DNA of 64,000 bases from Mobula hypostoma (Eukaryota). Numbering within the stretch: position 1 is the first letter of the stretch; each line of letters begins with the position of its first letter. Below are positions 6,381 to 59,669 of this stretch, piece after piece. The stretch is taken from the NCBI RefSeq assembly GCF_963921235.1, contig NC_086097.1:76696001-76760000 (forward strand). Reading direction: 5' to 3'. The notes beneath the pieces were generated by a model. The model saw nothing but the letters and a program-made list of their open reading frames with translations, was not told the DNA's origin and ran no database searches. The position numbers and the translations under genes were made by a program.

Positions 6381-9066
6381 ATTCCAGTCTAATTCGGTTA
6401 GGCAGGTCAATGCTTGTGTTGCTGGGCATGCTCACGTGAAGTCTGTTTATTCCCATTCTTAGATGCTGCCTGACTTGCTGAGTTCCTCCAATATTTAGAG
6501 TGTGTTGTTCAAGATTTCCAGCATCTGTAGAATCTATTGTGTTTTTGAAGAGCCTTACTCCTTTTTGCTCTTACATTATTTAATTGATAACTGATTAACA
6601 TAATATGTATTGCCCAGGTGCAGCTTGAAGCTGATAAGTCCTGGTCAGCCTGAGTCCTCAGTACACACTAAATTGTTTCATCCAATATTACAGCCCGTTT
6701 TTGTGTTGCTGTGAGTCCACTGCACAGTTTGAGTGGAATACAAGATATATTTAAGTTGGCAGCCTTCTTCAGAGAGCAAGATAGAGTAACAGGCACAGAA
6801 AATGAGCACATCATACACGTGCACAAAGGTACACTTCTTTAGCAAGTGTGCCGTGTGGTCGGCAACCTTCTAAACAGCCATGCAGTCTCGTCGTGGATTC
6901 TTTGTGTAGACCAAGTTGTGTAAATGTGGTTAAAATTCTGTGATAGTACCTTGAATTAGAATGAGAAATGAGGAAATCACATAAAATGTCTTGGTGGGTG
7001 AAAGGGTGAATAAAATGACCTGAGTAGTCCTGGTGGAACTGCACTGATCAATGACTCAAACTGAAGTCAGCCTTGGAGTTTGATCATGATTTATGAAATG
7101 TGGCTGCCCAGGGGAGCCAAACTGATCAGTTTGTCACATCACTGGACCATTCAAGCTGGGCTGCAACAATGGCAGACTTGCTGATAATCCACAGTATTAC
7201 TTTATGATTTTGATGAGCTTTGTAGGCCAGGGACTCGGAAGACAAAGGGAAAATTAATTATTAAAGTTACTTTAATTTAGTTTAATTCCTCCAATATTTG
7301 TTTTTGTTTTTAATAGATTTTTTTCAATGTTTACATTCGTTTTTTAAATATTCATTTTAATTTTAATAGTTTTCAAATGTGCCCATGTCGGAGCCATTTC
7401 AGCAATGAAAATAACTTGCGTGATTTCAGGGCAGGTGAAGTTCTACTCCAACCTGCCATATCCCCCAAACATTTTCCAGAGGGAAGTCCTCTAGCCCATG
7501 CCAGCAATGGTAAACTCACCATCTGGACCATACCACAAGCATCACAGAAGTTCGCCACAATGGCCTAGGTAAGTCTGGGCATGCGAAGATCACGGCCAGA
7601 TGTTCCATGAAACGAGCCTGCTCTTGCATGGTTCACCCATTGATATTTCTGGCCTAGTAGTGCTTAGTTTAATTTAAACCATGGAATGTGTGAAAAAAAC
7701 ATTTCATCAATATAAAAATAAATAGAAAAGCTAACCATGTTAAATAATATTCTGCACCAAATTTATATTTGCTTTCAGAATACTAGAATTATTTTAGAAA
7801 TGGTATATAAGTTAATTTGAAAGAGTATACATACAGTGTGTTTTACATTACAGGTAAGATTTTAATTTCAGAAACTGAAGGGTCATCGCAGTGTATGAAA
7901 AGCTGCATTAACCATTCTAATGTTTTATGACCACAACACGCTGGCAGAGCAGTTACATAATATGTGGTTTTGTTACTAGTATCAGACCTCATGAAGTATT
8001 ACTGTATATAAAGATTCAGTAACGACTGCAGTTATTGAATGTTAACATTTGTCTACGTATTTATTCAAAGGAAGGGAAAATTTAAGTACAAAGTGGAAGA
8101 TTTCCCGTGTCTCGATGAATAATCCCATACGTTGCATTACTAATAACATCTTTATATTTGATAATTCCACTTCCTTAATGGTCAGCTAGTTCATCTTCAT
8201 ATTAACTTTCTTATGTACTGTCTGGTTCCTGACCAAACATACGCAATTGTACTTATCTGCAGTTACCTAATTGTGGTGGAGTTTTAAGAGTTCACTTGAA
8301 ATTTAAATACAATTCAATGGAAAAGAATCTTTTAGGAAAATATGTTCTTCCTATATGGAAGACAGTTGAAGGTACAGTAATAATGATCTTAACTTGCAAG
8401 TTTACTTCCTGGTCAGAACTGATCTCAGTCAGAATATTAATTTTGTATTATTTGGAGGAAATCAGGGATATAAACCACTGCTGGGAGTGCATTTATATTT
8501 GTATTCAGGGTGGAGTTTGGCTGGGGTGTTCTCGTGTCTCTTTTATCTTTGTTAATCACTAAAGATCAACCCGGAACCCAGAGAAAGTGGGATAGAGAGA
8601 AAATTCAAGAAATTGCCATTTGGCCTTTAATTCTTTGTCAGAAGTATAAAATCCCCCATGGCACTCATCATTTGTGTTATATGTAAGGAGCCAGCATTCT
8701 CCTACTACAGTTTAGAGCAGTGGCATCACGAAGTGGCCAATTTGAACAGCATGAATAATCGAACAACACAGAAGCTGATCAAACGCCAATGTCCCAGAAA
8801 GGTGTATTAGCTTTTGCATAGTTCCATGGATTTTTACAAGTTGTACCATATTACCTATCCTGTTGTTACAAATTCAAGCACATGGTTGAGTAACTTGGCA
8901 ACGGACTTGATACCAGATAAACAAAACAGACAAAAGTAAAAGATGGATCTTAATTCTTCACGTCATCTCTTTTCTTTTACTATCTAGTTTTGTCATTGTG
9001 CAATTCAAAGTACAGATGTCCATTACTGTGATGACTAACATGTTTTTTTTTGTTCTTTATTTGCAG

Positions 9067-9174
9067 TATGTTCCTCCAGACCTTTCCATCTGTGTTTTTG
9101 TGCTGGAGCAGTCATTGTCTGTCAGAGCCTTGCAGGAGATGTTAACCAGTACAAGTGAAATGAGCAATGAAGGG
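9067..9174 (+). CDS. RYR3: RYR3 exon 3 equivalent: [36 protein letters not shown]
   Basis: ttgcag| ... |gtaact; 108 nt; phase 0-0. Confidence 0.96.
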
Positions 9175-9859
9175 GTAACTATCAAACATTTAAGTATTTG
9201 ATTTTTCCACTCCATTATGCTCTAGAGTGAATGCTATTTCCAGGCCATAGGATTTTTCTTTGTTTAAAGTATTTACACTAGTCTGCTCATCATTGCTGTT
9301 TAGAAAATACCTATTTACAGACTCGTATCAAGTTGATTTGAATAGAATTGGCACCACAAATCAACATCCAAATTGTACACTGTTGCAAAGACTATTACCC
9401 TAAAGCATGGTGGAACAAAGAATGTACTGTGTGTTAAAATTTATATACTGATTAGATCACACTGGAGTATATCAGTCAGGCCTCCTCGTTACAAAGCCAA
9501 TGTGTGGGCACTAGAGAAAGAATATTCTTAAATATATATTGAGTACAGCACCAAAATTGAGAAAGTAGAGCTATTGGAGAAGTCTGAGTAGGCTGGGAGG
9601 TTTATCTCATTGCAAACAAAAGGATTGGTCTGATAGAGATCTTCATAATGATTCATGGGTTTGACAGAGTAGAATGCAAAGTGGCTTGGATTTTGCAGAT
9701 ATTGCATCAACAAAAAAAAGTGGTGCCTTCATTACACTGTAAAATGAACATCAACCAGGATTTCCACATAGAATAGGTTAACGCGAAATCCAGATATTGT
9801 GATCAGTGATTCAACATTTGCAGTCAGGGTGTAGGGCTCCTTAATCTTCTCTTAACAGG

Positions 9860-10096
9860 TGATGCACTATCAATTACTCCAAAAGACTGGAAGTAGAGTA
9901 AATACTGAAAGGCTTTAATTAGCAGTAAATGGTCCATGTCCCTGCTGAGTATCTGCCCCGGACTGAGGGAGGAGCAGTGGCACAATCGCCTTTATTCAGG
10001 GTTCTGTGGGAGGAGCCACAGGAGCAGTCAGCAGAGGGTCGTGTCCAGACAGGTAACCCAGTTACAACATTTATATATATATATGGTTTACCACCA
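9860..10096 (-). mobile_element. Short solo LTR
   Basis: TG...CA ends flanked by a cagg TSD; ATTAAA on the minus strand. Confidence 0.7.
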
Positions 10097-10554
10097 CAGG
10101 CTCATGGAGAATCAAATTTTGCTTTGTTTTGTGCAGTCTAGTCGATTTGAAGGAAATTTATAAGAAATCTTCAGAAGTATTCCATATCAAACTTACTGGC
10201 CCTAGAGAGAAATATATATGCGTAGATTTTATTTCCCTTCGATAAATTATTTCAAAACATAATTGATTTTAAATTTAAAATAAATGATTTATGGTATTTC
10301 AGCTTTTTCCTAAACTACTTCTGTAGCTATGATGGCTCATTTGTTATATTACTCAAAGTCTTAAAGTCTTATCAGTGGATATGAAGACATTACCATAACT
10401 GCTGGAGGAGGTGTTGATTCTGTTAAATAATTAGAAAATAAAAACATCAATTACATCGACTAACCTGCCAGATATCCATAATTGAAAACAAAAAGTAACC
10501 AAAATACTCAGCAGGTCCGCTTGAGTGTCTGGAGAGAGGGACAGGCTTGATGTA

Positions 10555-10650
10555 AATGCCCATCTGGTTCACTAATTTCTTCGAGGCAAGCAAATCTGTC
10601 GTCCTTATACTGCCTGTCCTATGTGGTTGACTTGTGACGGCCCCTTCCAA
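10555..10650 (+). mobile_element. SacSINE1/Deu-SINE-like fragment
   Basis: catctggttcactaat...aaatctgtcgtcctta resembles the recalled SacSINE1 3' part. Confidence 0.45.
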
Positions 10651-11660
10651 CACAAAAGTGGCAGTCAGCCAGCTCTAGGATTATTGAGAAAGGATCATTA
10701 GAATGAACAAGCTGGCCCTGCTAATTGTGTACTTAACTTGTCAGTGATGAAAAAGAGATTCTTATCTGTAATGAGAGTTCTGTAAAATGTTTGAAACCTC
10801 ATCAAAGAAACTCTTGGTTTCTAGTTCATGAGAATTCCTTCATGGGATTGTTCACTCAGTTAGCTTACCGACACCAAAGCATCAGAGATCCCTCCTTAAA
10901 GGGACATTGATAAAGGAGAAGTCCTCATCATGCAGAATGATAGATTTTTATTGACAGTTTTCTTGAGGGTCATGTTCATGGTTCACCCTGAATGTAAAAT
11001 TAGTCCTAAGATGCTTTCATGTGTAAATGAAGTCAAAAGAACACATCATCACTATTAGATGCTGCATAATAAATCTAAATGATATGTTCCGTATTGAAGG
11101 AGTGGTGAGGATTTGGGACTTACTACCATGTGAGTTAGTTAAGGTGCACACCCATGGAGGCATTTAAGGGGAACCCAGATGACTGAAGGCATAAAGAAAT
11201 GAAATATCATCTTTGTTGGGTTGAAATAAGGTCAGAAAAACCTTGTGCAAATCCTGGACCAGCAAATTCTATTTAAATTGGCTTCTTTGGTGTAGGTTCT
11301 CATTGTTTCAGAATCAAGAAGATTCAGTACATGTTCCCACCTGCAATGTTCTCTTTATTTAAAATAAAATCATCTCAGATCTTTTCTTTAATGGTGCATA
11401 ATACTCCAGTTTCAGATTTTAAGTTCCACTCTATTTTTTGAGGTGCTTAAAACTCTCCTTACTCAGAATGGTACAGACTAATGTCGTGCTAAGATATATC
11501 ATGTTATTTGAAAATCACTTATTTTGTTGAATTCATTATTAATAATAAATCATTGATATTATTTTGGCAAGTGTGTTGTCAAGTTCATGCATTTTCTTTG
11601 CTGAATTTTGCATATTTGTGTGACTTTGCAAATTAATTTAACTGTTGGATTTATTTGCAG

Positions 11661-11681
11661 CTCTTAAAATCTATTCCCCGT
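11661..11681 (+). CDS. Candidate 21-nt micro-exon LLKSIPR
   Basis: ttatttgcag|CTCTTAAAATCTATTCCCCGT|gtatgt; frame-preserving, no stop; no homology recognised. Confidence 0.3.
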
Positions 11682-12073
11682 GTATGTTGATAGCTGGATT
11701 ATTTGGTGTACTGTTCTCATCAGGAATGTACAGCTAACTGAAGAAGGTGATTCAGCCCACTACACAGCAGATGTTTTATGTCAATTTTTGTTTTCTGCAG
11801 CTGCAGTAAACTCCAATTGGTTCCTTCTGGGAAGAAAATTGGCAAAGTCCAAACTTTCCGGCCTAAACCAGACCCTGCAGTGTGGTGTTCTCTGAACAGC
11901 CTTCTTTGTTCAAATGTAATTAGGATGGGCAATCAGTTTGGCAACGTCCATATCCCATGAACAATAAATAAAAGAGTTTTCCAACGTGCAAAGTCAAAGG
12001 ATTTATCTGGATAAGATAGAGAAATGTACTTGTAATTTATTCTCTCTTTGCTGTTTCTTTTTTAACATGCTAG

Positions 12074-12094
12074 CCAATTGATTTCACCAAATGG
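12074..12094 (+). CDS. RYR3: 21-nt micro-exon PIDFTKW, homologous to RYR2 exon 4 (QVDVEKW)
   Basis: Pyrimidine tract, then aacatgctag|CCAATTGATTTCACCAAATGG|gtatgt; same length, phase and D..KW pattern as RYR2 exon 4. Confidence 0.82.
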
Positions 12095-12453
12095 GTATGT
12101 TTATTTCATTGGTTTTTCACCCTTCTTCTTACAAGCATGCAGTCAAAGTGTTGAACTCTAAACTTGCTTTCATAGGGCAAATTCCTTAAATTTGTTGTGT
12201 AATTGTATAATTATTTTTTAAAATTTACTCCTTTTAGTGATGGGATGAAAAGCAGTTTATTCAACTGTTTTCACTTCAACTGAAAGGGAAATGCGATTTT
12301 TGTTTATTATTTTGTATCTCTTTATTGATTAATTTGTTCTTAGGGAAAATATTCAATCATAAATTAGTGATCAGGTATGGTGAATTTTGCAACAATATCT
12401 GGTAATGCCTAAAGTGAGATGGCAGCAGTATCCAAACTTTAGCTGAACTGCCT

Positions 12454-12935
12454 TTCAAAGTTCAAAATTTATTATCAAAGTAAATATATATTACCATATT
12501 CTACACTGAGATTTGTCTTCCTGCAGGCATTCATAGGAAAAAAGAAATACCATAGATTTTACAAAAAAAACTTTGCTGACAAAGTTTTTTTCTATTATAG
12601 GAAACATTTATTCAGTGACATGGGTAGGTAGTTTCTTTTCTCATCTTGCTTTGCTTATTGATGAATCAGATTCAGATTTAATATCATTGGCATATGTCAT
12701 GAATTTTGTTCCTTTATGGCAGGAGTACAATATAATAAATATAGAGAAAAAAAACTGAGTTAGATTAATTAAGTATATATATGTATATCAAAATAACAGA
12801 AATAAAAATAAAAGTAGTGAGGTAGAGTTCATGGGTTCATGTTCATTTAGAAATCAGATGGCAGAGGGGAAGAATCTGTTCCTGAACCACTGAGTGTGTG
12901 CTTTCAGACTTCTGTACCTCCTTCCTGATGGTTTT
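12454..12935 (-). mobile_element. Two Rex1/Babar-like 3' end fragments
   Basis: ttcaaagttcaaa and aatcagattcaga tails, similar to the plus-strand Rex tails at about 20270 and 36950. Confidence 0.6.
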
Positions 12936-14649
12936 ATGATGCAATATTGTGGTGCTTCCTGACTGACAAACATAAGATTTAAGGACTCTGATGTAATAAG
13001 TAAACAGATTCATCCTATGAAAACTTATCAAAGTCAACCTTTGTTTCTAGTCTATGAGAACTCTTTCAGCTGATAAAATCATCATAAATATTTGCTGATT
13101 ACATATACCGTGGTTGAAGAAATCATGGAACCAGATAGAGGTGGACATGGCCCAGCTCTCACATTCCGGAAACCCACAATCATACTGAGAGATTGTGAAT
13201 GTGCAGATCCATACCCATTGCTATTGCTGTTGATTGAATTGGATTGGACCACAAGTCTGGACATAGAAACTGTCTTCATGCTTACAAATTGCCTGATAAC
13301 AGTTTGAAAGCTCATGCCATCAAAGGACTTTTCCATAGCTTCCGAATCTCTCCGATAATCAGTCACTTCAGAGCTAAAAATTGTTTACAAAATTCAAAAA
13401 CATTCTAAATTTACTTCAAATCACATTCATCTTAAAGTAACTGAACCATTAATATTAAAAGTAAAAATTTGGAAAATTTCATCGAAGATCTATTTGAATG
13501 AATAGGGGCAGCTGTGGCTAGTATAAAGCATGTTAGGCCAAATGCAAAGTATATTCAGCCCCTCAACTCCATAGATTATAGAACTGCTGCTGAATATGAT
13601 GCCAAGTGCAGCAGTGAAGCAAAAGATTGAATCTGTTGCCAGGTGATGTTTCCACCTTTACATTCTTCTGCTCTGCTATCTATCCAAAGGCATAATTCAA
13701 TGTTGTGAATAGGATTATGGAAATCGGTTGGATTTTTTTTGAGTGGTTAATCACAATTTTATGTCTATGAAGATGTAATATTAGCAGGAGATGAAAGGGT
13801 CCCCATTTTTCCCAGGGTTGGATTCTTCAGTAGTCTGATTCTCAGACTTCACCTTAACGCTAAGCTGTTTGCTGCCTTGAGCTTAATGAAGGTAAAGGGG
13901 AGGTGACCTTCACTGCCAAGTAGAAGGAAACTGACCATTTTGAAGAGGGCTATTTGCTGCAATGCCATTTAGGAGGCAGAGCAGTGGGTGGGCACACATC
14001 TTGCATTAAAACACCCAAACTAAACCAGCCTGTAACAGTTTCATGAGATGATGAGGTTAAAAAAAAACAGACATGGGAATTTTGTGAGATAATCCGGACT
14101 GACAATATTTTTACCCTGTAGCATTTGCAAACATTTTTTATGTGAAAAACCCCATTAAATGATTTTACTCAATTGATGCTGAATCTGCAGGTAATTGTGT
14201 CTTGACTATCAAAGGGAGAATATTTCCTGTGTTGCCTTGGATGATGGCCAAAAAGACATTAAATTAATAATACAATTTTACTCATCAGCAATTTAATTTG
14301 CTGACAATGACATGAAATTTTTTGAATATATTTTTATTTAAAGTGTTAATTGGAAAGTGCAAGCTCACAGAATATTTTTTAAATTTGATTTTTAAATATA
14401 GAAATGAACAGTTAAAATGAAATAAACTCAAAGGGTTCACAAAGTACTGAGGTTGTTGATTTATTTTCTTGAGAAATCTTAGTAAGCACATACTTAATAA
14501 CATGCTTTACTTGTATTAGCTCAAAGAGAATAATCCTTCTCTTTTGAATCAGAAATATTAGTAGCTACTAAATGTGCCTCTTTAAAATTGAAGGCAAACC
14601 TTTACATCACCTTGACTAGTCCCATCCCCATCCTGAACTTGAACAAAAG

Positions 14650-15200
14650 AAATATAAGAAAATTAAAATAAAAAATCTGGAACTCTGAAATGAAAGGAAG
14701 TGCTATAAATGCTCAGTTAGACAGTGTCTGTGGAAAGAGAAACAGGGTTAACATTTCAAGTTGGAAATCCTTTGTTTAGACTTGAAGAGTGAGTAAACAA
14801 GTTTTACGTTGCAGCCAAGTTGGAGGAGGGGTGATTCAGACCAAGTAGTGTTTAGCTGTAGATGTAATCATGTGGTTAGTAGATTATGTGAAGGACAATT
14901 CATTGAGTGCAAAGGATGGTGACTTGGAAAGTGAGAGCAAAGAGAACTCTACTACTGCTGTGTTCTGCAGAAGAGGGAGTGAGAGCAGAGAAGTAGGACA
15001 CAGATCATTAGAAAAGACATGTCAGGAGATATCAATCAAGAGACTCCACCAAAATCTTAACACTGCAGCAAGCCATGCCTCACCTGTCAGAGATAAACCC
15101 TTTGTTCCATGCAGCCTAATTCCAACCTCTCTGCAATATAAAGCTAATTATTATCCCCTTCCCAGAAAGTCTGCCTCACCCCAAGAACAGGCTCAAGTTG
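14650..15200 (-). mobile_element. Old degenerate Penelope-like fragment
   Basis: aatgctcag...tctgtggaaagagaaacag..ttaacatttc tail motif. Confidence 0.4.
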
Positions 15201-15204
15201 TCAT

Positions 15205-15490
15205 TTAACCATATACTGCCAAAGGAAACAATGTTCCTCCAGACCAAGGTGCACAACACAGTGCATGCAACTCGCATACACAACACATAAAGTAAAATTA
15301 CCATGAATAAATTAACAAATAAAAAGGTGCATTTATGACTCAAGTTAAAAAGTAAACATATGACACTACTGATGCTTCATATGTGATGAGACCTGGGTGG
15401 TGGAATCGAATTCAGTGATCTTATAGCCTGGGGGAAGCTGTTTTCCCATCTTAACAGTTCTTGTCTTAATGCTATGGTACCAGCTGCCAC
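15205..15490 (-). mobile_element. Rex1/Babar-like 3' fragment
   Basis: Minus strand reads NSFPQAIRSLN. Confidence 0.6.
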
Positions 15491-15539
15491 ATGTGTGCCA
15501 CAGCTCCTGAGGTGATGCTGGATTGTGTAGCAAGAGAGA

Positions 15540-18500
15540 GAGTTCAAAAGTAGCGAGCGGAGGCAGTCAGGACATTCTGTGTGCCTCGGTTCCCAAGGAG
15601 ACATTGGATTGTGCATAATTAGGAACTTGGCAAGGGCCAATAAAAAGTAGTTTAAGTGGAGCAACCAATGCAGAAGTGGACATTGTCAGAGTGGAGAACT
15701 CTGGCTTTGGCTCATAGAGGCTTCAGTGAGGAGAGACAAAGACTGTAGGTAGATTTTTTACTGTTTAATTTTTATTTCTATCTTTCTTATTTCAAGTTAG
15801 AACACTGGAGATGCCAGGCAGGATAATGGAATTCTCCTCTTGCAGGATGTGGGAAGGCAGGGAGATCCCTAGTGTTCCTGATGACGACACCTGCAAGATG
15901 TGGTTGGGCAGAAAGAACTACAGTCTGCAGATCAGTGGATTCGAATGAAATAAGGACAGTGGAAGCAGGCAGGCTAATTGTCTTGGTAGTTACCATGTGT
16001 TTGAAGGAAATGGAGGTGGCCATTTTGAGAGGCTGTCCTTGCAGACCCCCATTTTGTGTACTCTGAACTGATTCTTGCTCTGGGACACTCTATTCAGAAC
16101 AATTAAATGTGGGCACAAGGAGTTTCTGTTGTTGACTTGTTAAGCCTGAGAGAATTCTCAGATAAGCTGTGTATTGTGTAGAATGGCAGATTTGCAGAAG
16201 TAATCTTGTTAGATTTAGGGTCTGGGAGAACCATAAATTACCAGTAGCCAATAACACTGCAAGGTACAGCTATACAGCTTTGGATACTGTTGGGGGGAGG
16301 ATCAAGCAGAAAAAAAAACACAGCAGTCAAGTCTCTGGAATTGAGCCTGATTCTGTGGCTCAGAAGGGAAGGGGTAAGAAGAGGAGTGCAGTAGTGATAG
16401 GGGATTCCGTAGTTAGCAGAGCAGACAGGAGATTCTGTGGACATGAAAGACACACTCAGATGGTATGTTGCCTCCCAATTGCCAGGATCAAGGATGTCTT
16501 GGATCAGGTCCACCATGTTCTAAAAGGGAAGAGTGAGCAGCTGTAAGTCATGGTACCTATTGGTACCGATGATATAGATAGGAAAAGGGAAGAGGTCATA
16601 AGAGAAAATATAGGGGGTTCGGTAGAAAGCTGAAAAGCAGGACCTCCAGGGAAGTAATTTCTGCATTGTTGCCTCTGCCGCGTGCCAGTGAGAGTAAGAA
16701 TTGGATGATTTTGCAGCTGAATGCATGTCTGAATAATTGATGTAGGGGCCAAGGTTTATGAGTTCTGTAACATTCTGTAACTTCTGGGGAAAGAGGTGAC
16801 ATAGGATTGGAAGATGTAGAATCCTTAAAGAACTGCAAAAGTAAAAAGATCATGATGGGAGTTATATGCAGGCCTCTGAACAGTAGCCAGCATGTGGGGT
16901 ACAAATTACAGCAGGGCATAAAAAAGGATTGTAAAAAGGTTAATGTTACGAAAGTCTTAGGAGTTTTCAATATGTAGGTAGGTTGGAAAAATCAGGTTGT
17001 TGCTGGATCCTAAGGGATGGAATTTATAGAATGCCTACAAGATGACTTTTTAGAGCAGTTTGTGGTTGAGCCCACTAGGGGAAAGGCAATTCTAGGATTA
17101 GGTGTTGTGTAATGAACCAGATTTGATTAGGAAGCTTCAGGTAAAGGAACCATTAGTAGACAGTGATCATAATATGATAGAATTCACCCTGCAGTTTGAG
17201 AGGGAGAAGCTAAAGTCAGCTATGTCAGTATTGCAGTAGAGTAAAGGGAATTGCAGATGCATGAGAGAAGAACTGGCCAAAGTTGATTGGAAGGGGACAC
17301 TATCAGGAATGACAGCAGAACAGTATTGGCTGGAGTTTCTTGGAGCATTTTCAGAAGGTGCAGGATCCCAAAGAAGAAGTATTCTAAAGGGAGGATGAGG
17401 TAACCATGGCTGACAAGGGAAGTCAAAGATTGCATAAAAGGAAAAGAAAGAGCCTGTAATATAACAAAAATAAATGGGAAGTTAGATGATTGGGCAGCTT
17501 TTAAAAACAAACAGAAGACAACTAAAAAATCTATAAGGAGAGAAAAGATGAAATGTGAAGGTAAGCTAGCCAATAATATAAAAGAGGATTCCATTTTTTT
17601 TCAGATTTATAAAGAGTAAAAGAGGAGAGGGTGGTTATTGGACTGCTGGAAAATGACGCTGGAGGAGGGGTAGTAATGGAGGACAAAGAAATAGCAGATG
17701 AACTTAAGTTTTTATGTTAGTCTTCACTCTGGAAGACACTAGCAGTAGTATGCCCGAAATTTGAGCATGTCAGGCAGCAGAAATGAATGCAGTTGCCATT
17801 ACTGAGGAGAAGGTGCTTGGGAAGCTGAAAGGTCTGAAGGTGGATAAGTAATCTGGACCAAATGAATTACACCCCAGGGCTTTGAAAGAGGTAGCTGAAG
17901 AGATGTGAGGGCATTAGTAATGAAGTAATTAGTAATCTTTTTAGAATCACTAGATTCCGAATGGTTCCAAAGGACTGGAAAATTACAAGTGTCACTCCAC
18001 TCTTTAAAAAGGGAGGGAGGCTGAAGAAAGGAAATTAAAGACTAGTTAGCTTGGCTTCAATGGTTGGGAAGATATGGAGTCCATCATTAAGGATGAGGTT
18101 TTGGGGTTCTTAGAGGCGCATGATAAAGTAGGCCAATGTCAGTATGGTTTTCTTCAAAGGAAATCTTACCTGATAAATATCTTAGAATTCTTTGAGGAAA
18201 TAACAAACAATATAGACAAAGAAGAGTCAGTGGATGTTGTTTGCTTGGATTTTCAGAAAACCTTTGACAAGTTGTTGCACATAGGACTGCTTAATAAGAT
18301 AAGAGACCATGGTATCACAGGAAAGATATAGCATGGATAGAAGTTGCAGTTGCTTTACCAGCAGGAGAGAAAGAGGGAAATAAAGAGATCCTTTTCTGGT
18401 TGGCTGCCAGTGACTAGCTGTGTTCCACAGGGATCTGTGTTGGGACTGTTACTTCTCATGTTATATGTTAATGATTTGGATGGTAAAATTGATGGATTTG

Positions 18501-19386
18501 GGGCCAGTTTGCAGAGAATATGATGACAGATGGAGGAACCGGTATTGTTGAGGAAGTAGGGATAGTGCAGAAGGACGTAGACAGATTGAGAGAATTGGTA
18601 AGGAAGTAGCAGATAGAATACAGTGTTGGGAAGTGTATGGTCATGCACTTTGGTAGAAGGAACAAAGGTGTAGACTATTTTCTAAATGGGGAGAACATTC
18701 AAAAATCATAGGTGGAAAGTGACTTGGGAGTCCTTGTTCAGGATTCCCTAAAGGTTAATTTGCAGGTTGAGTGGTGACAGAGAAGGCAAATGCAATGTTA
18801 GCATTGCATGTCTCAGAGGACTAGAAAGTAAAATCACGGATGTAATGCTGAGACTTTATAAGGCATTGGTCAGACCACACTTGGAGTATTGTGAGCAGTT
18901 GTGGGCCCCTTATCTAAGAAAGGTGCTGGCATTGAAGAGGGTCCAGAGGAAGTTCACAAGAAAGATTCTGGGAACAAAAGGGTTAATATATGAAGAGTGT
19001 TTGATGGCTGTGGACCTGTACTCATTGGAGTTTAGAAGAATGTGTGGGATCTCATTGAAACCTGTTGAATATTGAAAGGCCTAGACAGAGTGGATGTGGT
19101 GAGGATGCTTCCTACAGTAGATGAGTCTAGGAGCAGAGGGCACAAACTCAGAATAGAGGAACGCCCTTTTAAAACCAATGAGAACTGTATTCAGCCAGAG
19201 GGTGGTAAATCCGTGGAGGCCAAGAAATTTGGTATATTTAAAGCAGAGGTTGATAGGTTCTTGATTATAGGTTATCAGGAGAAGGGGGTTGAGAGGGATT
19301 AACAAATTGGCCATGATAGAATGGCAGAGCCGGCTCAGTGGGCTGAAGGGTTTAATTCTGCACTGACGTGTTATGGTCTTATGGTA
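15540..19386 (+). mobile_element. CR1 LINE, near full length but decayed (ORF1 with GDS/SGNH esterase, partly deleted endonuclease, RT)
   Basis: AVVIGDSVVSRADRRFCG, DVVCLDFQKTFDK, LVRPHLEYCEQLWAP; ttatggtcttatgg tail. Confidence 0.9.
15899..16235. mobile_element. Probable solo LTR interrupting CR1 ORF1
   Basis: TGTGGTT...AACCATA near-inverted ends, internal ATTAAA; no clear TSD. Confidence 0.45.
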
Positions 19387-19389
19387 GGG

Positions 19390-20520
19390 GGTCAAAAAGA
19401 TTGTTCAACGGATGGGAGGGATCTTTGTCAATTCTAAGAACGCTGTATATGCAGCGCTCCTGAACTATCAATAATGGGTGGAAGAGAGACTCTGAAGCAG
19501 TCGTCTCAATCCTTTGTGGGGACTTGCGGTCAGATGCGTTGCAATTCCCGTATCAGAGGACCTGTCCTGGGTCCAACGCATAAGTGCAATTATGAAGAGT
19601 GCACTGCAGGATCTCTACGTCCTTAGGAGTTTGTGGAGATTTGGCTTGACGTCAAAACTTGACAAACTTTTAGAGGTGTGTAATGAAGAGTATATTGATG
19701 GGCTGCATCACAGCGTTGTATGGAAGCACCAATGCCCTTGAATGGAAAATTCTATAAAACGTAACGGATACGGCCCAGTCCATCACGGATAAAGCCCTCC
19801 CGACCATTGAACATGTTTCCATGAAACGCTGTCGCAGGAAAGCAGTATCCATCATCGGGGATTCCCACCACCCAGGACACATTCATTTCTCATTTCTCAA
19901 GAGCCTTAGGACTTGTACCACCAGGTTTAGGAACAGTTATTGCCCCTCAGCCATCAGGCTCTTGAACAAACAGGATAAATTCACTCAACTTGACTTGCCC
20001 ATCGTTGAAATGTTCCCACAACCAATGGACTCATTTTCAAAGACTTTTCATCTCATGTTTTCAATGTTTGTTGCTTATTTATTTATATTATTGTTTCTTC
20101 TTTTTGCATTTGCACAGTTTGCTGTTTTCTGCAATCTGGTTGAAAGCCATTTTGGCAGTCGTTCATTGATTCTGTTATAATTACTTTTCTATAGAAATGT
20201 TGAGTATGCCCACAAAAAAATGAATCTTAGGGTTGTATATGGTGACATATATATACTTTGATAATGAAATTTACTTTATATTTTGATGCAGCCAGTCAGG
20301 ACTTTCTTGATGGTGCTCCTGTAAAAATTGGTTAGAATGATGGTGGGGTGGGGGGACTCCTCACTTGCTTCAAGCTCCTCAGGGAGTGGAGACACTGCTG
20401 TGCTCTCTTGACCAAAGAGGCCATTACGTGCACTTCTAGAAAGCTGGTACTCCTAACTCTCTCCATGGAGGAGCCACTTATGTGCATTGAGTGGTCAGCC
20501 TGCACCTTCCTAAGATACTC
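19390..20520. mobile_element. Nested Rex1/Babar-like fragments (plus-strand 3' copy at about 19545-20280 inside a minus-strand copy)
   Basis: SLRTCTTRFRNSYCPSAIRLLN. Confidence 0.7.
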
Positions 20521-22965
20521 CTAAAGCACCTCCTGAGAATGTCCAGTCTTCACCTAAAACTAACCAACTCGTTCCAGTTTTGTGTGACACTAAGTTTTAA
20601 AAGTGATTTTGCGATCTAATGTGCGTAAGATATAGATTGCATTATCTGTTCCCACTTCCATACTGGATTGTGTAAATGTTTGCAAAAGTACAGAGCAGCC
20701 ACTGGAGAAAATGTTGATTTACTTGTCTTCTGATCTCAGTTTATTTTACATCTAGGAGCTGCTGCAGCTGATTCAAGCCCCTTCTGCTTGCGGGCTGAAA
20801 ATGCATTTCTGCTGATGCAGATATGGTCCTTGGTTCATTTTTGGTTGGTCAGATATGTTTAAAACAATCTATCCATAGCAGTAATTCTGTTCTAGGAACA
20901 AGACACTATCTAATTTGATTTTGGTTAGCGAATACATTTTTGGAAGCTTTTACTGTGGCGTAATGGAATTGATCTTCTAGCCAACTTACTTACTGAGCCT
21001 ACTTATCATTACTTTAATTTAATTGAACCCAGCAGTGTGACTTTAGTAAATGATTTAAGAACTGCTTATCTTCAAGTCCAAAGGAAGTTGGTAAAAAGTT
21101 AATCATAAATTTTATCATGGAAGCCTTTTTGTCTGTTTGTAAGTGAACTAAAAATATTAGTTTTCCAAAATGTTTTTTATTTCATCTTGTTATTACAAAA
21201 TACCTAAATTGTTAATCTTGTTATACTCCATTTTTAAAGATGCACTGTTTCAGATTAAGTGTATCAACTTTGCAATTTCTTACCTTTCTTGGGGATTTTA
21301 AGGTTACATGTCCTCTGTATGAAAATGAAAACTGGAAGTCCTGCTCTTGTGGCTCTACGTACAAGTGGTCACTTCCATCATAATCCACCTTGTATATATT
21401 TATTAAATATTGACAGTCCTGTTAATTTTCACTGGGATTATCCTGAGTTTATGTTTAACTGTGCATTATGGGAATGCAGTTTCTGATGTTGTCATTCATT
21501 GACTGCAAAGACAAATATGTAAATGTTTTATAAATAAGTATTTCTTGTTCACTGGTGGGTACAAATTATATGAAATGCAACCTTCTGCAGTGAGAGTTGC
21601 GGAACGTTAGCGGATTATTTCAAGGCAAACCCTCACAAGTTGCCTCTCTTAAATAGTTGATTTTTAAAATTTAAAGCCATTAATGGTACATAATCTAATG
21701 TGACATTTGCATTTGTCATTGGGACTTGGCAATGTGAATGGCAGTTAAAAATGTGCTTCAATAACTTCCAAGATCTAATGGTTTAGTTGAATTTTAAATG
21801 CGACATGACAAATGACTTTTATTGAGTAATTTCTCTGGAACATCATATACTTCCTTGACATTGTGTGGTATGGTAATTGAACTACAATGAATTCTGATAC
21901 ACTGCCCCTAAATAATAAAGCTTTTCTCAGAAGTTTGTGGACAAAAGCTATAGTTTATGGTTGGATTTTGCAACATTATGTTAGGTATATCGATCTCCTT
22001 TCAAGAAGTCTAAATTCTGAAGAATTTTGTGTTCAAGTCAGGTTATAACCAACCAGTACATCTGCACACCAACCTTTGTCTTTAACAAACACCTTCAATT
22101 ATCATTTTTATATACTGAGTCAACCTAACCAAAATCATAATGCAAAGAGAAAACCTGTCTAATTACAGTACTTTAGATGCATAACTTTATTTATTTTATT
22201 GTGTGGAATAGTCACCATGAATTTGAAATGATGTGCATGGTAGTGGTAAAATGCTGTTGCAGAAAGTAAAATGTAGAATAAATGCCAACGGGATCCATGC
22301 ATGGGAACATAAACATAAATCATATTGAACCCATCGCCTGGCTTCAGTAGAGCAATTAAGGTGGCACAGCCTTGGAAGCGTGTTAATTCTGCCTACATTC
22401 CTGACCAATACAGTATAGATAACCACATCTAGAAAGACCAGAGGGCTAGAATAAAGACTGTGAATGGTAGAAGTTCATCAGAATGTTAAAGAAGCACATT
22501 ATGGGTCTAAGGCCAGATCTCAAAAAAGATAATTAGATCAAACTATATCATGATACAACAATCATATTTTTTTCCTTTTGATTTCTAGGGAGGGAGTAGT
22601 GCTTACAAGATCTGCTCATAATTTAGAATATCTTGTAGGGTTCTCCATTTTACATTTGCAGATTGATTTAATTTGTAGAGAGTAAGAATTCATTCTTAAA
22701 GAACAATATTGATTTTATTTTATTATTACACTATTACATAATACTATCATGTACTTGGCTTAGTTACAATTTACATCAGAAACAAAAATCACAATTTCTA
22801 CTTACAACATATAAAAAGGACTCTTTTAATTACACAGTTTACACTAATTTTTTTTATACCTGGTACATAATGCCATCGTCGACTGTAGTTCCTTATGGTA
22901 AAAACATTGACCAGCAGGACATAGCTAAAGATTTCTTTGTTTTGTTTTGTTTTTATTGCATTAAG

Positions 22966-23016
22966 GGCTCTATCAAAAGAAGTTCCATCAGTGCCAAGAA
23001 GAAAAAATCTCTGAGG
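22966..23016 (+). CDS. Candidate 51-nt cassette exon GSIKRSSISAKKKKSLR
   Basis: tttctttgttttgttttgtttttattgcattaag| ... CTGAGG|gtaactatc; open in phase 0; lies between the two RYR2-like micro-exons. Confidence 0.5.
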
Positions 23017-24811
23017 GTAACTATCGTTGCTCTGATATTTCTATAAAGAGGAAAAATACAGTTTAGGTTAAGTAGTACCATTAAGTGGTAATGGCTACTA
23101 ACAAAAACCACTAAAATCGTTATTTATCATGTGCATTCAATAATTTTCCAATTGGGAGAAAAATTTGCTGAATTTAACAAAAAGAGCTGCAGGTAGTCAC
23201 TATAGCCGTATCTGACTGAGCTGTGTACGACTCTCAATGAATAAACCAGACTGTTTTGTGCAACAGAGTCTACTAGTGATAAATAGGGGTAAGAAGATTT
23301 TGTTAGTTTACAGCAGCTACCAGATCAAATTAGTGAACAAATATAAATAATAGCTTTTAATATTATTGGATGTTTGTGACTTTATTAACATTCTACATTA
23401 TTTTAACAGTTATCAGTATAGATAATTATTTCACATGGAATGATTAGACTTGTGTCATTCCTTGTCACGTGCTTGGTGCATCTCCAAGTACAAATCCATG
23501 ACAAATTGCTTTCATGTTACTATGTAAGCAAAGACAGCAGACAATTTGAAGATGCCATTTAAAATAAATGACAAGGTACTAAGTTTGGTGATTATGGTTA
23601 GGTAAGCAAGTTGATTTGAAAAATCCTGATTTTTGAATGGACACTTGGATTTTTTACATCTGTCTCAGTAGGAATCTAGCTTGACTTTTTATTCAAAGCT
23701 TAATACATTTGGCCATTATCATGCTAAATTTGTGCCTCGCGTTTGTGTTTGCAAGTGAAAACACCATCTAAAAGATAGTTATACAGTTAACAGTTCATGA
23801 AAAACTACTTTACTAATGTATTGTAGAATATTCACCCATAATTTAAACATTAAAACTTACACATTAGCATTGTTCAGCAAGAAAATTAATGCAAAGTTTG
23901 AACTATATATAAAGCAATTCTTAAAAGTTTGATTTTGATGGCATCCCATTAAAATGATTGTAAATTGAAATAAAAAAGGTTACTTGTACTATTTTCCTAA
24001 ACTGTGGTGTTATTTTTCCAAAATAGATATGGTAAATCGAGAAATTCCCTTTGTCATTCAATTACTCTTGGAATTTTATACTTTGTTCCTATACCTTAAA
24101 AAATCTCGGTTATATTTCACTTTAAAATTGCCTGTATAATCTTATCAGGCTGTATTTAAAATTACCCACCAGTGATGCTGCTATAGTGTCTTAGTTTTTT
24201 GTCATTTAGCTCTTCAACTTGTGATAGAGTAGTCCAATCATTCCAACCACACTTGGTTCCTAAATTTAACTACACAATAATGTAACATAAATATGTTCTG
24301 CTTTTCTAACTTTAAATCAGAGGATAATTTTAATTGCAGAACTATGAAGATTGATTATGGAACAAATGTATAAGGTTTGTTCTTAATAATTCTCAGTAAA
24401 CTATTAGAAGATCAATGTGACACTATTATGTTCCCACTAGGATTTTCTGATGAAATCTCAATTCAATTTACATTTAGATTAAAATTTTGCTTTCAAGGAG
24501 ATGACTATACTTATAAGACAAGGTGTACAAGTTTGACTCACAATATAAAATGATATATTGATATTTAATACAAGTTGGAAGGCAGAATCCAGATTCAAAT
24601 GTACCTATAATAGCTATCTTGGCAATTTTTACACTTAAATAATCCATCTTGTTTTAAAATTACATACACTTCAATATTAAAGTCTCCATGTAATGGGTGA
24701 GCTATTTGAAATGCCTACACATCTTTCACACAGTTGATTTGATGCAGAATGCAAAAACAGGCATAATAATCTTAATCCATGTTATTTGCTTTCATCTTTT
24801 CTGCTTTCCAG

Positions 24812-24826
24812 AGATTTATGATAAAG
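24812..24826 (+). CDS. RYR3: 15-nt micro-exon RFMIK, homologous to RYR2 exon 5 (KFMMK)
   Basis: ttcatcttttctgctttccag|AGATTTATGATAAAG|gtaagt; consensus splice sites, same length and phase as RYR2 exon 5. Confidence 0.88.
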
Positions 24827-25657
24827 GTAAGTTAATTTGCTTTTTCAGCTCATGGTCCATTGAAAAATAATACTAGTTACCTGACTGCTGTGTTAGCACT
24901 TAGTGCAAAATTCCTGTACTTTTGCCAAATGGTACTATCCTGATTGAAACCCATTTATAATGTTAGCAAACATCGGCAGTGATTATTGTTCTTAAAAACA
25001 CAGAAGTTCTAAACCTTCCTCTATCTTTTCAGTAAACATGCTATGCATAACTTGCATAGATATAATCAATTATATAGATTGCAATTGGAAACAAAATAAA
25101 AACATCACTTCAAAACTGCAGTCAATATAGATTAATATTGAGGTAAAACAAATTTATCGTGCAGTACAAAGGACATGTAGACAGAAACCTAAATTTATTA
25201 GGGAGTAAAATGTTAAAAATAAGTGAGAACTAATAGTTCAATTTACTCAAATCTGATGTTGGGCTACAAATGAAAGGGGAACTATCAGGACCAGTGCCAA
25301 TCTTACTCTGATATATCATCCACTTGTTTCTTAGTGCAAACTGTGGATGTTCCCATTTCTCCAATCATAGTGCCTGCTGTACTCAATATTCCACTTCCTT
25401 GAAATGCAGTAACATCCTTATTGATGCATTATACTCATTGATTACATAACATTATACTTCTCATCATTTCATTGAGAATTGGAAAAAGGTGTAATGCCAG
25501 AGAATTCATGGAAATCTAATAATTATTCACCATAATGAAATTAAAACACTCTCAAGGAATTATGGTCAACTAGGTTTTCTAATATAAAGTTAATGAAATC
25601 CCTACTAGCGTCATAGAACTATAGAACAGTACAGCACAGAAACAAGCCCTTTGACCC

Positions 25658-32250: not shown

Positions 32251-32325
32251 GCAGCTCAAGGGGGTGGACACCGAACCCTTCTTTATGGTCATGCTATTCT
32301 TCTCCGGCATGCATATAGTGGAATG
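32251..32325 (+). CDS. RYR3: RYR3 exon 4 equivalent: [25 protein letters not shown]
   Basis: tttttag| ... |gtgagt; 75 nt. Confidence 0.97.
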
Positions 32326-36955: not shown

Positions 36956-37740
36956 AATTCTGGTCTTGATGTTGCCATACAACAGTATGCAATGCATATC
37001 AGTTCACCGTTTACATAGTTTTTAGTGGCAGATGCATGGAATTATCATTTGTGTGTGACACTTATGCAAATACAGGTTTTAATACACCTGCTTCTGCCTG
37101 CCTTAAAGAGCATCACCTTGAATAGGTCTATGGCTGGTACTGCAAACCCAACTCAGATAGGATCCTTTGAAGTAATTTAATCACACATCCTTTCTGGTTC
37201 TTTCCGTACTTCAGAGAGTGACCCTACCCTTCCTCCAGCTCTTAATTCACACTCAATTTTTGCCTTAATAATACTGTATGCTACATTTAATTTTATGTCA
37301 TTACTATGTTAATAGAACAAGTAAAACAAATGAACTTTCTGTTTTTATTGGCATAAAATATTATAATTTGACAATATTAAGAGTTGTCGTCATTATCAAT
37401 GTTGTTGTATTCATTAGGAGACTGGCACCAATTAGGCTGAACATATGAAGTTATATCTGTATCTGCAAATTTATTTCAATCTTCACAATAATCAATGAAA
37501 TAATAAATTGCAAGCTAACTAGGCACTGCCACACTACAAAATGTTAGCTTTTATTTGGTAGGATTTTTAAGAACAAAAATGTTGTAAACTTGTGTGGAGT
37601 CTGTTGATTTCCTACCCATCTGCAGCAGAATGAGGCTATGATGCAGATTGCTGGTAGCCTTTGTTCAATCAGGAAAGGAGAAATCTTAATAAAAATTGCC
37701 TGATACCTTTGACAAACATTAGTTTGTAATCTGTTTGCAG

Positions 37741-57912: not shown

Positions 57913-58461
57913 GTGTGTACAAATCAGTTCAATTAACAATGGATAAACGCAATTATTTTCTACTAGTTCGAGTTGATTGAAGATTGTGTCACTATTTCAC
58001 TCAGAAACCTATATGGAATCTCAGTAGAAAATGGCAAATTACATTATAAATAATTAATTTAAAAAACTGAAGTAATTTGAAAATTAAATTGAAATGCAAG
58101 AGTCTGTGATGGAGTTGGCTTCATCTGCCAAGGACATAGAGTTATAGAACAATCAGGCACTCAGCCTAATAAATCCATGCTGAGGCATGGTGCACATCCA
58201 TCTAGTCCCAATTTCCTGTGTTCAGCCTCTAATCCTCCAAGCCCAGCCTCTGCAAATACCTGTCCAAGTATTTCTTATATTATACTATTATAATACAACT
58301 TCCCTGGCAGCTTGTTCCATATACCCACCACCTTCTGTGTGAAAAACATACCCCTCAGATCCCTTTTAAATCTTACCCCATCACCCAGTTTTGATTTCCT
58401 CTACCCTGCAGAAAAGACAGCTAATATCTACTTTATCTATGGCCCACATGATTTTATAATC

Positions 58462-59669
58462 TATGAAACTATGAAAATGGACAAGGGAGAGCCAGTGGAT
58501 GTAGTGTACCTGGACTTCCAGAAAGCCTTTGATAAAGTCCCACATAGGAGATTAGTGGGCAAAATTAGGGCACATAGTATTGGGGGCAGAGTACTGACAG
58601 GGATTGAAAATTGGCTGGCTGACAGGAAACAAAGAGTAGGGATTAATGGGTCCTTCTCGGAATGGCAGGCAGTGATTAGTGGGGTACTGCAAAGCTCGGT
58701 GCTGGGACCGCAGCTATTTAATGATTTAGATGAAGGGATTAAAAGTAACATTAGCAAATTTGCAGATGACACAAAGCTGGGTGGCAGTGTGAAATGTGAG
58801 GAGGATGTTATGAGAATGCAGGGTAACTTGGACAGGCTGGGTAAGTGGGCGGATGCATGACAGTTGCAGTTTAATGTGGATAAATGTGAGGTTATCCACT
58901 TTGGTGGTAAGAACAGGAAGGCAGATTATTATCTAAATGGAGTCACGTTAGGAAAAGGGGAAGCTCAACAAGATCAATCACTGAAAGCAAGCATGCAGGT
59001 ACAGCAGGCAGCGAAGAAAGCTAATGGCATGCTGGCATTCATAACAAGGGGAATTGTGTATAAGAGCAAGGAGGTCCTTCTGCAGCTGTACAAGGCCCTG
59101 GTGAGACCACACCTGGAGTATTGTGTGCAGTTTTGGTCTCCAAATTTGAGGAAGGACATTCTTGCTATTGAAGGAGTGCAGCGTAGGTTCACAAGGTTAA
59201 TTCCCGGGATGGCGGGACTGTCATATGTTGAAAGATTGGAATGACTGGGCTTGCATACACTGGAATTTAGAAGGATGAGAGGGGATCTGATTAAAACATA
59301 TAAGATTATTAAGGGATTGGACACAGTGGAGGCAGGAAGCATGTTCCCGCTGATGGGTGAGTCCAGAACCAGAAGCCACAGTTTAAGAATAAGGGGTAGG
59401 CCATTTAGAATGGAGTTGAGGAAAAACTTTTTCATCCAGAGAGTGGTGGATATGTGGAATGCTCTGCCCCAGAAGGCAGTGGAGGCCAAGTCGCTGGATG
59501 TTTAAAAGAAAGAGATGGATAGAGCTCTTAAAGATAGCGGAATCAAAGGTTTTGGGGATAAGGCAGGAACTGGATACTGATTGTGGATGATCAGCCATGA
59601 TCACAGTGAATGGCGGTGCTGGCTCAAAGGGCCAAATGGCCTACTCCTGCACCTATTTTCTATTGTCTA
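58462..59669 (+). mobile_element. Relatively young CR1 3' RT fragment with ttataatc TSD
   Basis: DVVYLDFQKAFDKVPHRRL, KFADDTKLGG, LVRPHLEYCVQFWSP; ctattgtcta tail. Confidence 0.92.

Follow-up and report, generated by a model that had tools for sequence, protein, structure and literature searches.

This locus raises the question of whether a 51-nt in-frame piece, lodged between two micro-exons of a ryanodine receptor (RyR) gene, is a genuine exon and, if so, what the basic peptide that it encodes could do. The window, by which we mean the whole 64,000-nt stretch of Mobula hypostoma DNA analysed here, had been the subject of a sequence-only reading that singled the piece out. Its description of the letters is borne out: 22966..23016 on the + strand comprises 51 nt and 17 open codons in phase 0/0, is bordered by an AG (22964-22965) and a GT, and translates to the peptide given there. 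That peptide carries a net charge of +7, with five lysines, two arginines, five serines and no acidic residue. The mention of a long U-rich tract and a TGC just 5' of the AG was likewise correct, the T fraction between -40 and -10 being 0.68, the top value among the 18 acceptors in the window, and the TGC lying at -9.

Judged by its sequence, and for the animal group by its best named match, the host gene is the RyR3 of a cartilaginous fish. Summed over exons, identities (which are not a tree) are 72-77% to five RyR3 proteins, against 67-69% to four RyR1 and 68-71% to four RyR2 proteins, and exon 2 has an RyR3-type end. The genome holds two further RyR loci, whose exons 3 and 6 read like RyR2 (contig C22) and RyR1 (contig C40). 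A tblastn search with the catshark protein P0002 placed host exons from 9067 to 63300, with exons 1 and 2 upstream of the window. The introns are crowded with broken reverse-transcriptase-like frames, which we take to be of LINE type (58294-59502, 16400-20700 and others), and repeat depth in the sequencing runs is high; tandem repeats were absent from 8500-35000. The features relevant to the cassette are collected in Table 1. All joints from exon 3 to exon 6 are in phase 0.

Table 1. Exons and signals around the cassette in the window; X2 is a sequencing run from a second organism, B
Feature	Position	Strand	Evidence
RyR3 exon 3, 108 nt, phase 0/0, upstream anchor	9067..9174	+	tblastn; X2 record 9 covers 9065-9170
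21-nt micro-exon, counterpart of RyR2 exon 4, TGC at -6	12074..12094	+	top-ranked among 1196 AG..GT candidates when compared with RyR2 residues 92-98
Branch-point-like YTRAY at -59 (predicted)	22907..22911	+	motif scan
U-rich tract of cassette acceptor; AG-free zone 33 nt	22928..22956	+	sequence, motif scan
TGC at -9 from cassette start	22957..22959	+	sequence
51-nt phase 0/0 cassette exon	22966..23016	+	frame, splice borders, transcript contig match 22965-23016 with 1 mismatch, single copy
GT donor, nine bases identical to exon-3 donor	23017..23025	+	sequence; run X2 contig match ends at 23016
QKI-type ACTAAY motif, 81 nt 3' of cassette donor (weak, predicted)	23097..23102	+	motif scan
15-nt micro-exon, counterpart of RyR2 exon 5, TGC at -10	24812..24826	+	best of 1196 candidates against RyR2 residues 99-103; no match from X2
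RyR3 exon 6, downstream anchor	32251..32325	+	tblastn

Parts of this cluster are visible elsewhere. The RefSeq RyR3 model of a blenny, a teleost (P0203), has a five-residue segment like that of the 15-nt exon, so the cluster is partly common to bony fish. The RyR1 gene of the present genome contains a 21-nt phase-0 exon (L014:1554-1574, C40:15614053) that matches both the 21-nt exon of the window and RyR2 exon 4; it too has a TGC at -6, its donor is similar, and at +92 stands a motif of the RBFOX type. Solved chains of mammalian RyR1 lack the corresponding segment. Between exons 3 and 6 of the genome's RyR2, no exon 4 or 5 is recognisable in the span scanned (C22:23249600-23294500), and a GC donor seems to close its exon 3. 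This is the reverse of the mammalian pattern.

How much the splice signals are worth was assessed with a fixed filter combining pyrimidine share, absence of a nearby AG, donor score and an open phase-0 frame. Three pieces pass in the 23,076-nt span from exon 3 to exon 6, and they are exactly the two micro-exons and the cassette. In 375,202 nt of control sequence 34 candidates pass, equivalent to 2.1 per 23 kb; when a TGC is also required five remain (0.31 per 23 kb), and the chance of one such pass in the 12.7-kb intron between the micro-exons is about 16%. By themselves, the splice signals of the cassette are not beyond chance: they make it a fair candidate and are not proof. What raises it above chance is the spliced transcript contig described below. 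In a later intron, a 63-nt piece with a TGC (37109-37171) also passes the filter, at chance level.

The sequence-only reading had also drawn attention to the donor, whose nine intronic bases are those of the exon-3 donor. This is true of the letters, the nonamer having just two + strand occurrences, at 9175 and 23017, and carries little weight. Among the window's 18 donors 0.05 such pairs are expected (a rough estimate, about 1 in 20, with one donor set one base off), and a second donor pair in the window has 8 nt in common; the coincidence is therefore not a sign of duplication. The common stretch amounts to 11 nt including two exonic G, where the similarity ends, and derivation of the cassette by duplication of the end of exon 3 was rejected on that account. 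An exonised repeat was ruled out too, since a DNA search of the 3.48-Gb genome matched the stretch at one place, and a protein search gave itself plus one match at E 2.3.

Evidence for splicing was sought in 14 sequencing runs, none of them recorded as RNA; the RNA label we use for run X2 is a guess. Nine runs, from eight organisms and eight studies, contain two or three of just three sampled words. Four (X1-X4) were aligned to 8900-25000 at 80% likeness, pieces shorter than 31 letters not being placed. Record 9 of run X2, from organism B, is a 250-nt contig of depth 3.14 in which letters 103-208 match 9065-9170 with 11 mismatches in 106, and letters 27-78 match 22965-23016 with a single mismatch in 52. 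The two pieces lie on one strand and in gene order, with more than 31 letters on each side of the skipped 13.8 kb. Between them are 24 letters, and 24 is also the predicted number: 4 nt left over from exon 3, then the 21-nt exon, minus a shared G. Bin depths also agree, with predicted and seen values of 3.181 and 3.18 for exon 3, 0.123 and 0.12 for the 21-nt exon, and 0.304 and 0.30 for the cassette. The start of the exon 3 piece at 9065 fits an exon 2 ending in AAG, and that of the cassette piece at 22965 a 21-nt exon ending in TGG. The stop at 23016 fits a following exon without an initial G, as is the case for the 15-nt exon, exon 6 starting with G. The junction is placed by coordinates in one contig of depth about 3, and the 26 letters 3' of the cassette, being fewer than 31, are unplaced.

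Because this contig joins exon 3 and the cassette with the exact spacer, the cassette is spliced, downstream of exon 3 and the 21-nt micro-exon, and has been conserved in a second organism. The suggested join of 12094 to 22966 thus fits one X2 contig by coordinates, and the proposal of an undescribed splice module stands as far as a real in-frame exon behind the 21-nt micro-exon, with its 24-letter spacer, is concerned. We are highly confident that the 51 nt are a real exon. It is very likely that the cassette donor is used and joined to the 15-nt exon, and equally so that inclusion of the cassette is optional.

Other records are less direct. Only 121 records of X2 aligned, whereas X1, X3 and X4 gave over 3000 apiece, so organism B is probably a more distant species. 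X2 record 10, with 14 differences in 76, is at the level of paralogues (15-17 in 74 for the RyR1 and RyR2 of this genome). In X3, record 23 (22978-23376) runs unspliced across the cassette donor and is pre-mRNA, DNA or retention. The cassette bin has some 926 letter-depth units beyond record 23 in X3 and about 47-50 letters at depth 2 in X4, from records that are unlisted and were left uncounted. Both these runs cover exon 3 and have no cover in the bin of the 21-nt exon, which was not counted as skipping. X1 shows no cover at either the cassette or exon 3 although all three sampled words are present in it; a record filter applied to the alignments omits some records. No skipping junction was seen directly in the four aligned runs. 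The catshark protein model P0002, a prediction, is without all three micro-exons.

The conservation sought by the earlier reading is apparent in organism B, where the cassette is alike in 51 of 52 letters and exon 3 in 95 of 106. The lower mismatch rate of the cassette points to constraint, with p 0.024 in a binomial test and, not significantly, 0.11 in Fisher's test. Searching with the peptide gave no accepted match in the protein sets and metagenome contigs covered. The cassette is absent from all 175 RyR proteins that hold both exon 3 and exon 6 (of 263 retrieved), a sample biased to insert-free forms by a query lacking the insert, with 120 of that query's 533 matches covered and with proteins of up to 4815 aa, and one without a full-length shark or ray RefSeq RyR3. 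The cassette may already be present in automated shark or ray gene models. Among proteins of 31-100 aa, a 57-aa query of cassette and intronic frame found no candidate. The sole match in 1.84 billion representative proteins, a tandem-repeat protein without an aligned stretch, was rejected. Metagenome contigs gave 596 pattern matches, of which none was confirmed, and no exact match. Nor do the exon 3-6 spans of the genome's own RyR1 and RyR2 contain a look-alike, their best ungapped scores being 25 and 23, without an AG, against 77 for the cassette itself. In one hagfish gene model (P0072), exon 3 is directly followed by a basic segment that loosely resembles the second half of the cassette; 189 of 5000 shuffles score as well, uncorrected, and the model looks faulty at this very stretch, which is a lead only.

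The cassette falls, as the earlier reading had it, in the N-terminal domain A (NTD-A), and its position there can be given more closely. Over residues 1-156, RyR2 is 12 residues longer than RyR1, and these 12 correspond to the two flanking micro-exons; the cassette would enter between the counterparts of RyR2 residues 98 and 99, giving a 29-residue insert. We presume the 12-residue insert to be the mobile helix described for RyR2 in the literature. The cassette would split this segment, which likely makes up the mobile N-terminal helix of RyR2. An AlphaFold model of mouse RyR2 domain A was unusable for placing the helix (mean pLDDT 39.5). According to the available text of PMC9168041, RyR2 NTD-A has an extra mobile helix through which the N-terminal domain might be coupled to the pore, and that of PMC3691467 has a flexible loop of RyR2 domain A refolding on exon-3 deletion. 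In the accessible part of PMC11452665, the RyR3 N-terminal domains make up a ring that becomes wider when the channel opens, changes at NTD interfaces affect gating, and NTD-A sits close to the fourfold axis.

In which tissue the cassette would be included can be approached through its signals. A TGC between -20 and -6 is found in all three micro-exons, where it lies at -6 to -10, and in one of the 15 other exons (p 0.005, with the interval chosen post hoc). This suggests neurons and regulation of the SRRM3/4 type, at least from the motif. Micro-exons usually measure 3-27 nt; the 51 nt of the cassette exceed this range, and it is not classed as an SRRM3/4 micro-exon. The AG-exclusion zone of 33 nt is surpassed in nine of the 17 other acceptors. 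ACTAAY, which in the downstream intron is the motif of QKI-activated muscle exons, is seen near the cassette at +81 and -123; a downstream copy accompanies three of 18 exons, and the background is 0.09 per 244 nt. From the parts of the sources available, UGC between branch point and AG is found in 74-79% of SRRM3/4-dependent micro-exons without being strictly needed (PMC8797185), fly RyR has an eMIC-dependent exon (bioRxiv 10.1101/2024.09.17.613571), QKI motifs follow a positional rule (PMC10202634), and in mammals the heart keeps RyR2 exon 4, whereas brain and islets skip it (PMC9033130). The neural leaning is weakened by the behaviour of RyR2 exon 4, included in heart and skipped in brain, by the 51-nt length and by the QKI-type motif downstream. 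We tentatively favour a neural, SRRM3/4-type pattern, at not quite an even chance, over muscle or heart, which we regard as possible at somewhat lower odds.

Taken together, our reading, held at even strength, is of a conserved in-frame exon, likely an optional and tissue-regulated cassette, whose peptide would split the short helix and likely serves as a phosphorylation-tuned, electrostatic modifier of gating. Inclusion would insert a strongly positive, Ser-rich peptide in a loop of NTD-A. Being basic, flexible and disordered, the loop would contact an acidic surface, and phosphorylation of the PKA or PKC type would weaken that contact, a mechanism that is conceivable and that we would put at rather less than even. 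The basophilic kinase-like site that had been claimed is present as a motif, the peptide containing two PKA-like and three PKC-like matches and none of the CaMKII-like or AKT-like kind. Short basic motifs of this sort are expected in any Lys/Ser-rich peptide. The role in tuning gating by phosphorylation is one that we infer.

Other explanations have to be weighed against this. The insertion might act as a steric off-switch, its 17 residues breaking the helix of the 21-nt and 15-nt exons while charge and serines matter little. Entry at the middle of the 12-residue insert speaks for such an effect, as does the description of the segment as mobile and able to change fold (available parts of PMC9168041 and PMC3691467). 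A mere spacer, however, need not keep 51 of 52 letters when the organism is 10% diverged at exon 3, and the composition, +7 with acidic residues wholly absent, is extreme for one; we think this explanation unlikely. Somewhat less probable again is a docking motif for an acidic partner, such as a protein of the calmodulin or S100 class, a scaffold, or the anionic lipids of an opposing membrane, which would provide cell-type-specific localisation or calcium feedback in place of direct gating. The peptide is indeed polybasic and has hydrophobic residues in and around it, the 21-nt exon contributing Trp, the cassette two Ile and a Leu, and the 15-nt exon Phe and Met; the Trp and Leu are 17 residues apart, a spacing that is presumably like that of the RyR calmodulin site. 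Against docking, the central Ser-Ser-Ile-Ser-Ala and the Gly would be unfavourable to a clean amphipathic helix, and NTD-A, close to the fourfold axis, is not obviously membrane-facing in the available part of PMC11452665.

Two further explanations dispense with a function for the peptide. Conservation of the stretch could reflect a role at the RNA level, as an intronic element that is occasionally included, with the peptide incidental. Near-identity, at one mismatch in 52, exceeds what protein constraint alone needs, and the spliced contig is single and of low depth, with an unspliced X3 contig running across the donor. The X2 match nevertheless ends at the exon borders, the frame is kept, record 9 is unbroken from exon 2 to the cassette, and alternative exons under regulation typically show strong conservation of their nucleotides, all of which makes the RNA-level explanation improbable. 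Finally, there might be no exon, only an AG..GT frame that arose by chance, in which case the X2 contig would be an artefact of assembly or alignment. The filter does pass about two chance candidates per 23 kb, and two joints at a repeat adjoining the acceptor had to be dropped as mostly false. Set against that are a single record that bridges 13.8 kb with order, strand, spacer length and bin depths all as expected, and a stretch that is single-copy; we consider an artefact very improbable. We retain the phosphorylation-tuned cassette as the preferred reading.

As regards novelty, RyR2 exon 4 is already a known case of alternative splicing at this position, and a third, basic exon in RyR3 is new among the literature searched. 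No description of one was found there, and bioRxiv supplements and subscription papers may list it. The 12 supplements of a zebrafish micro-exon paper (PMC12626424) contain no ryr term, a mouse exon table has a single Ryr3 row, of 87 nt, with the cassette absent, and the available portions of PMC9741552, PMC3990712 and PMC12424749 hold nothing on the cassette exon. None of the RyR2 forms retrieved has the cassette.

The significance of the exon lies in its position. A natural splice switch is known at this site, RyR2 exon 4, which differs between heart and brain or islets. The presence of the cassette in RyR3 suggests that the loop is no RyR2 invention, and a highly charged third exon in the RyR3 loop, kept across cartilaginous fishes, would be a natural insertion variant for probing the role of the loop. 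This concerns one exon in one fish lineage so far, and a function that we infer. Bolder, and in our view a long shot, is the idea that the supposedly RyR2-specific helix is the remnant of a micro-exon switchboard predating the split of RyR1, RyR2 and RyR3. It derives from the occurrence of the 21-nt exon in both the RyR3 and the RyR1 of this genome. To this switchboard the cassette would add a third element, a phospho-switch that splicing installs in the N-terminal gating ring, absent from all gene models and possibly persisting, unannotated, in bony-vertebrate RyR3.

Among known systems, the SRRM3/4-dependent neural micro-exons usually measure 3-27 nt, a size which the cassette, at 51 nt, exceeds. 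It is like them in its UGC close to the AG, its U-rich tract and its kept frame (available parts of bioRxiv 10.1101/2024.09.17.613571 and PMC8797185). A likely working likeness is the phosphorylation loop of RyR Repeat3-4, also flexible, basic and Ser-rich, with PKA and CaMKII sites, as given in the available text of PMC7570887; by comparison, the cassette lies in another domain, is likely alternative where that loop is constitutive, and has no CaMKII-like motif. Closer to hand, Amador in 2013 reportedly described the extra mobile helix of RyR2 NTD-A, and Lobo in 2011 is said to have described a loop rescuing exon-3 deletion. The cassette falls in the 12-residue insert separating RyR2 from RyR1, to which this helix probably corresponds; in the part of PMC9168041 available the helix is called unique to RyR2, whereas here its coding exons are present in RyR3, the 21-nt one also in RyR1, and can be split by a basic peptide. 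The nearest parallel is provided by mammalian RyR2 exons 4 (7 aa) and 5 (5 aa), residues 92-103, a known splice switch at the same protein site and in the same phase-0 cluster between exons 3 and 6 (PMC9033130, available text). The flanking micro-exons match these segments, with which the cassette has no homology; and, in distinction to the mammalian arrangement, it is RyR3 that hosts the cluster here, with an additional 51-nt exon set between the pair.
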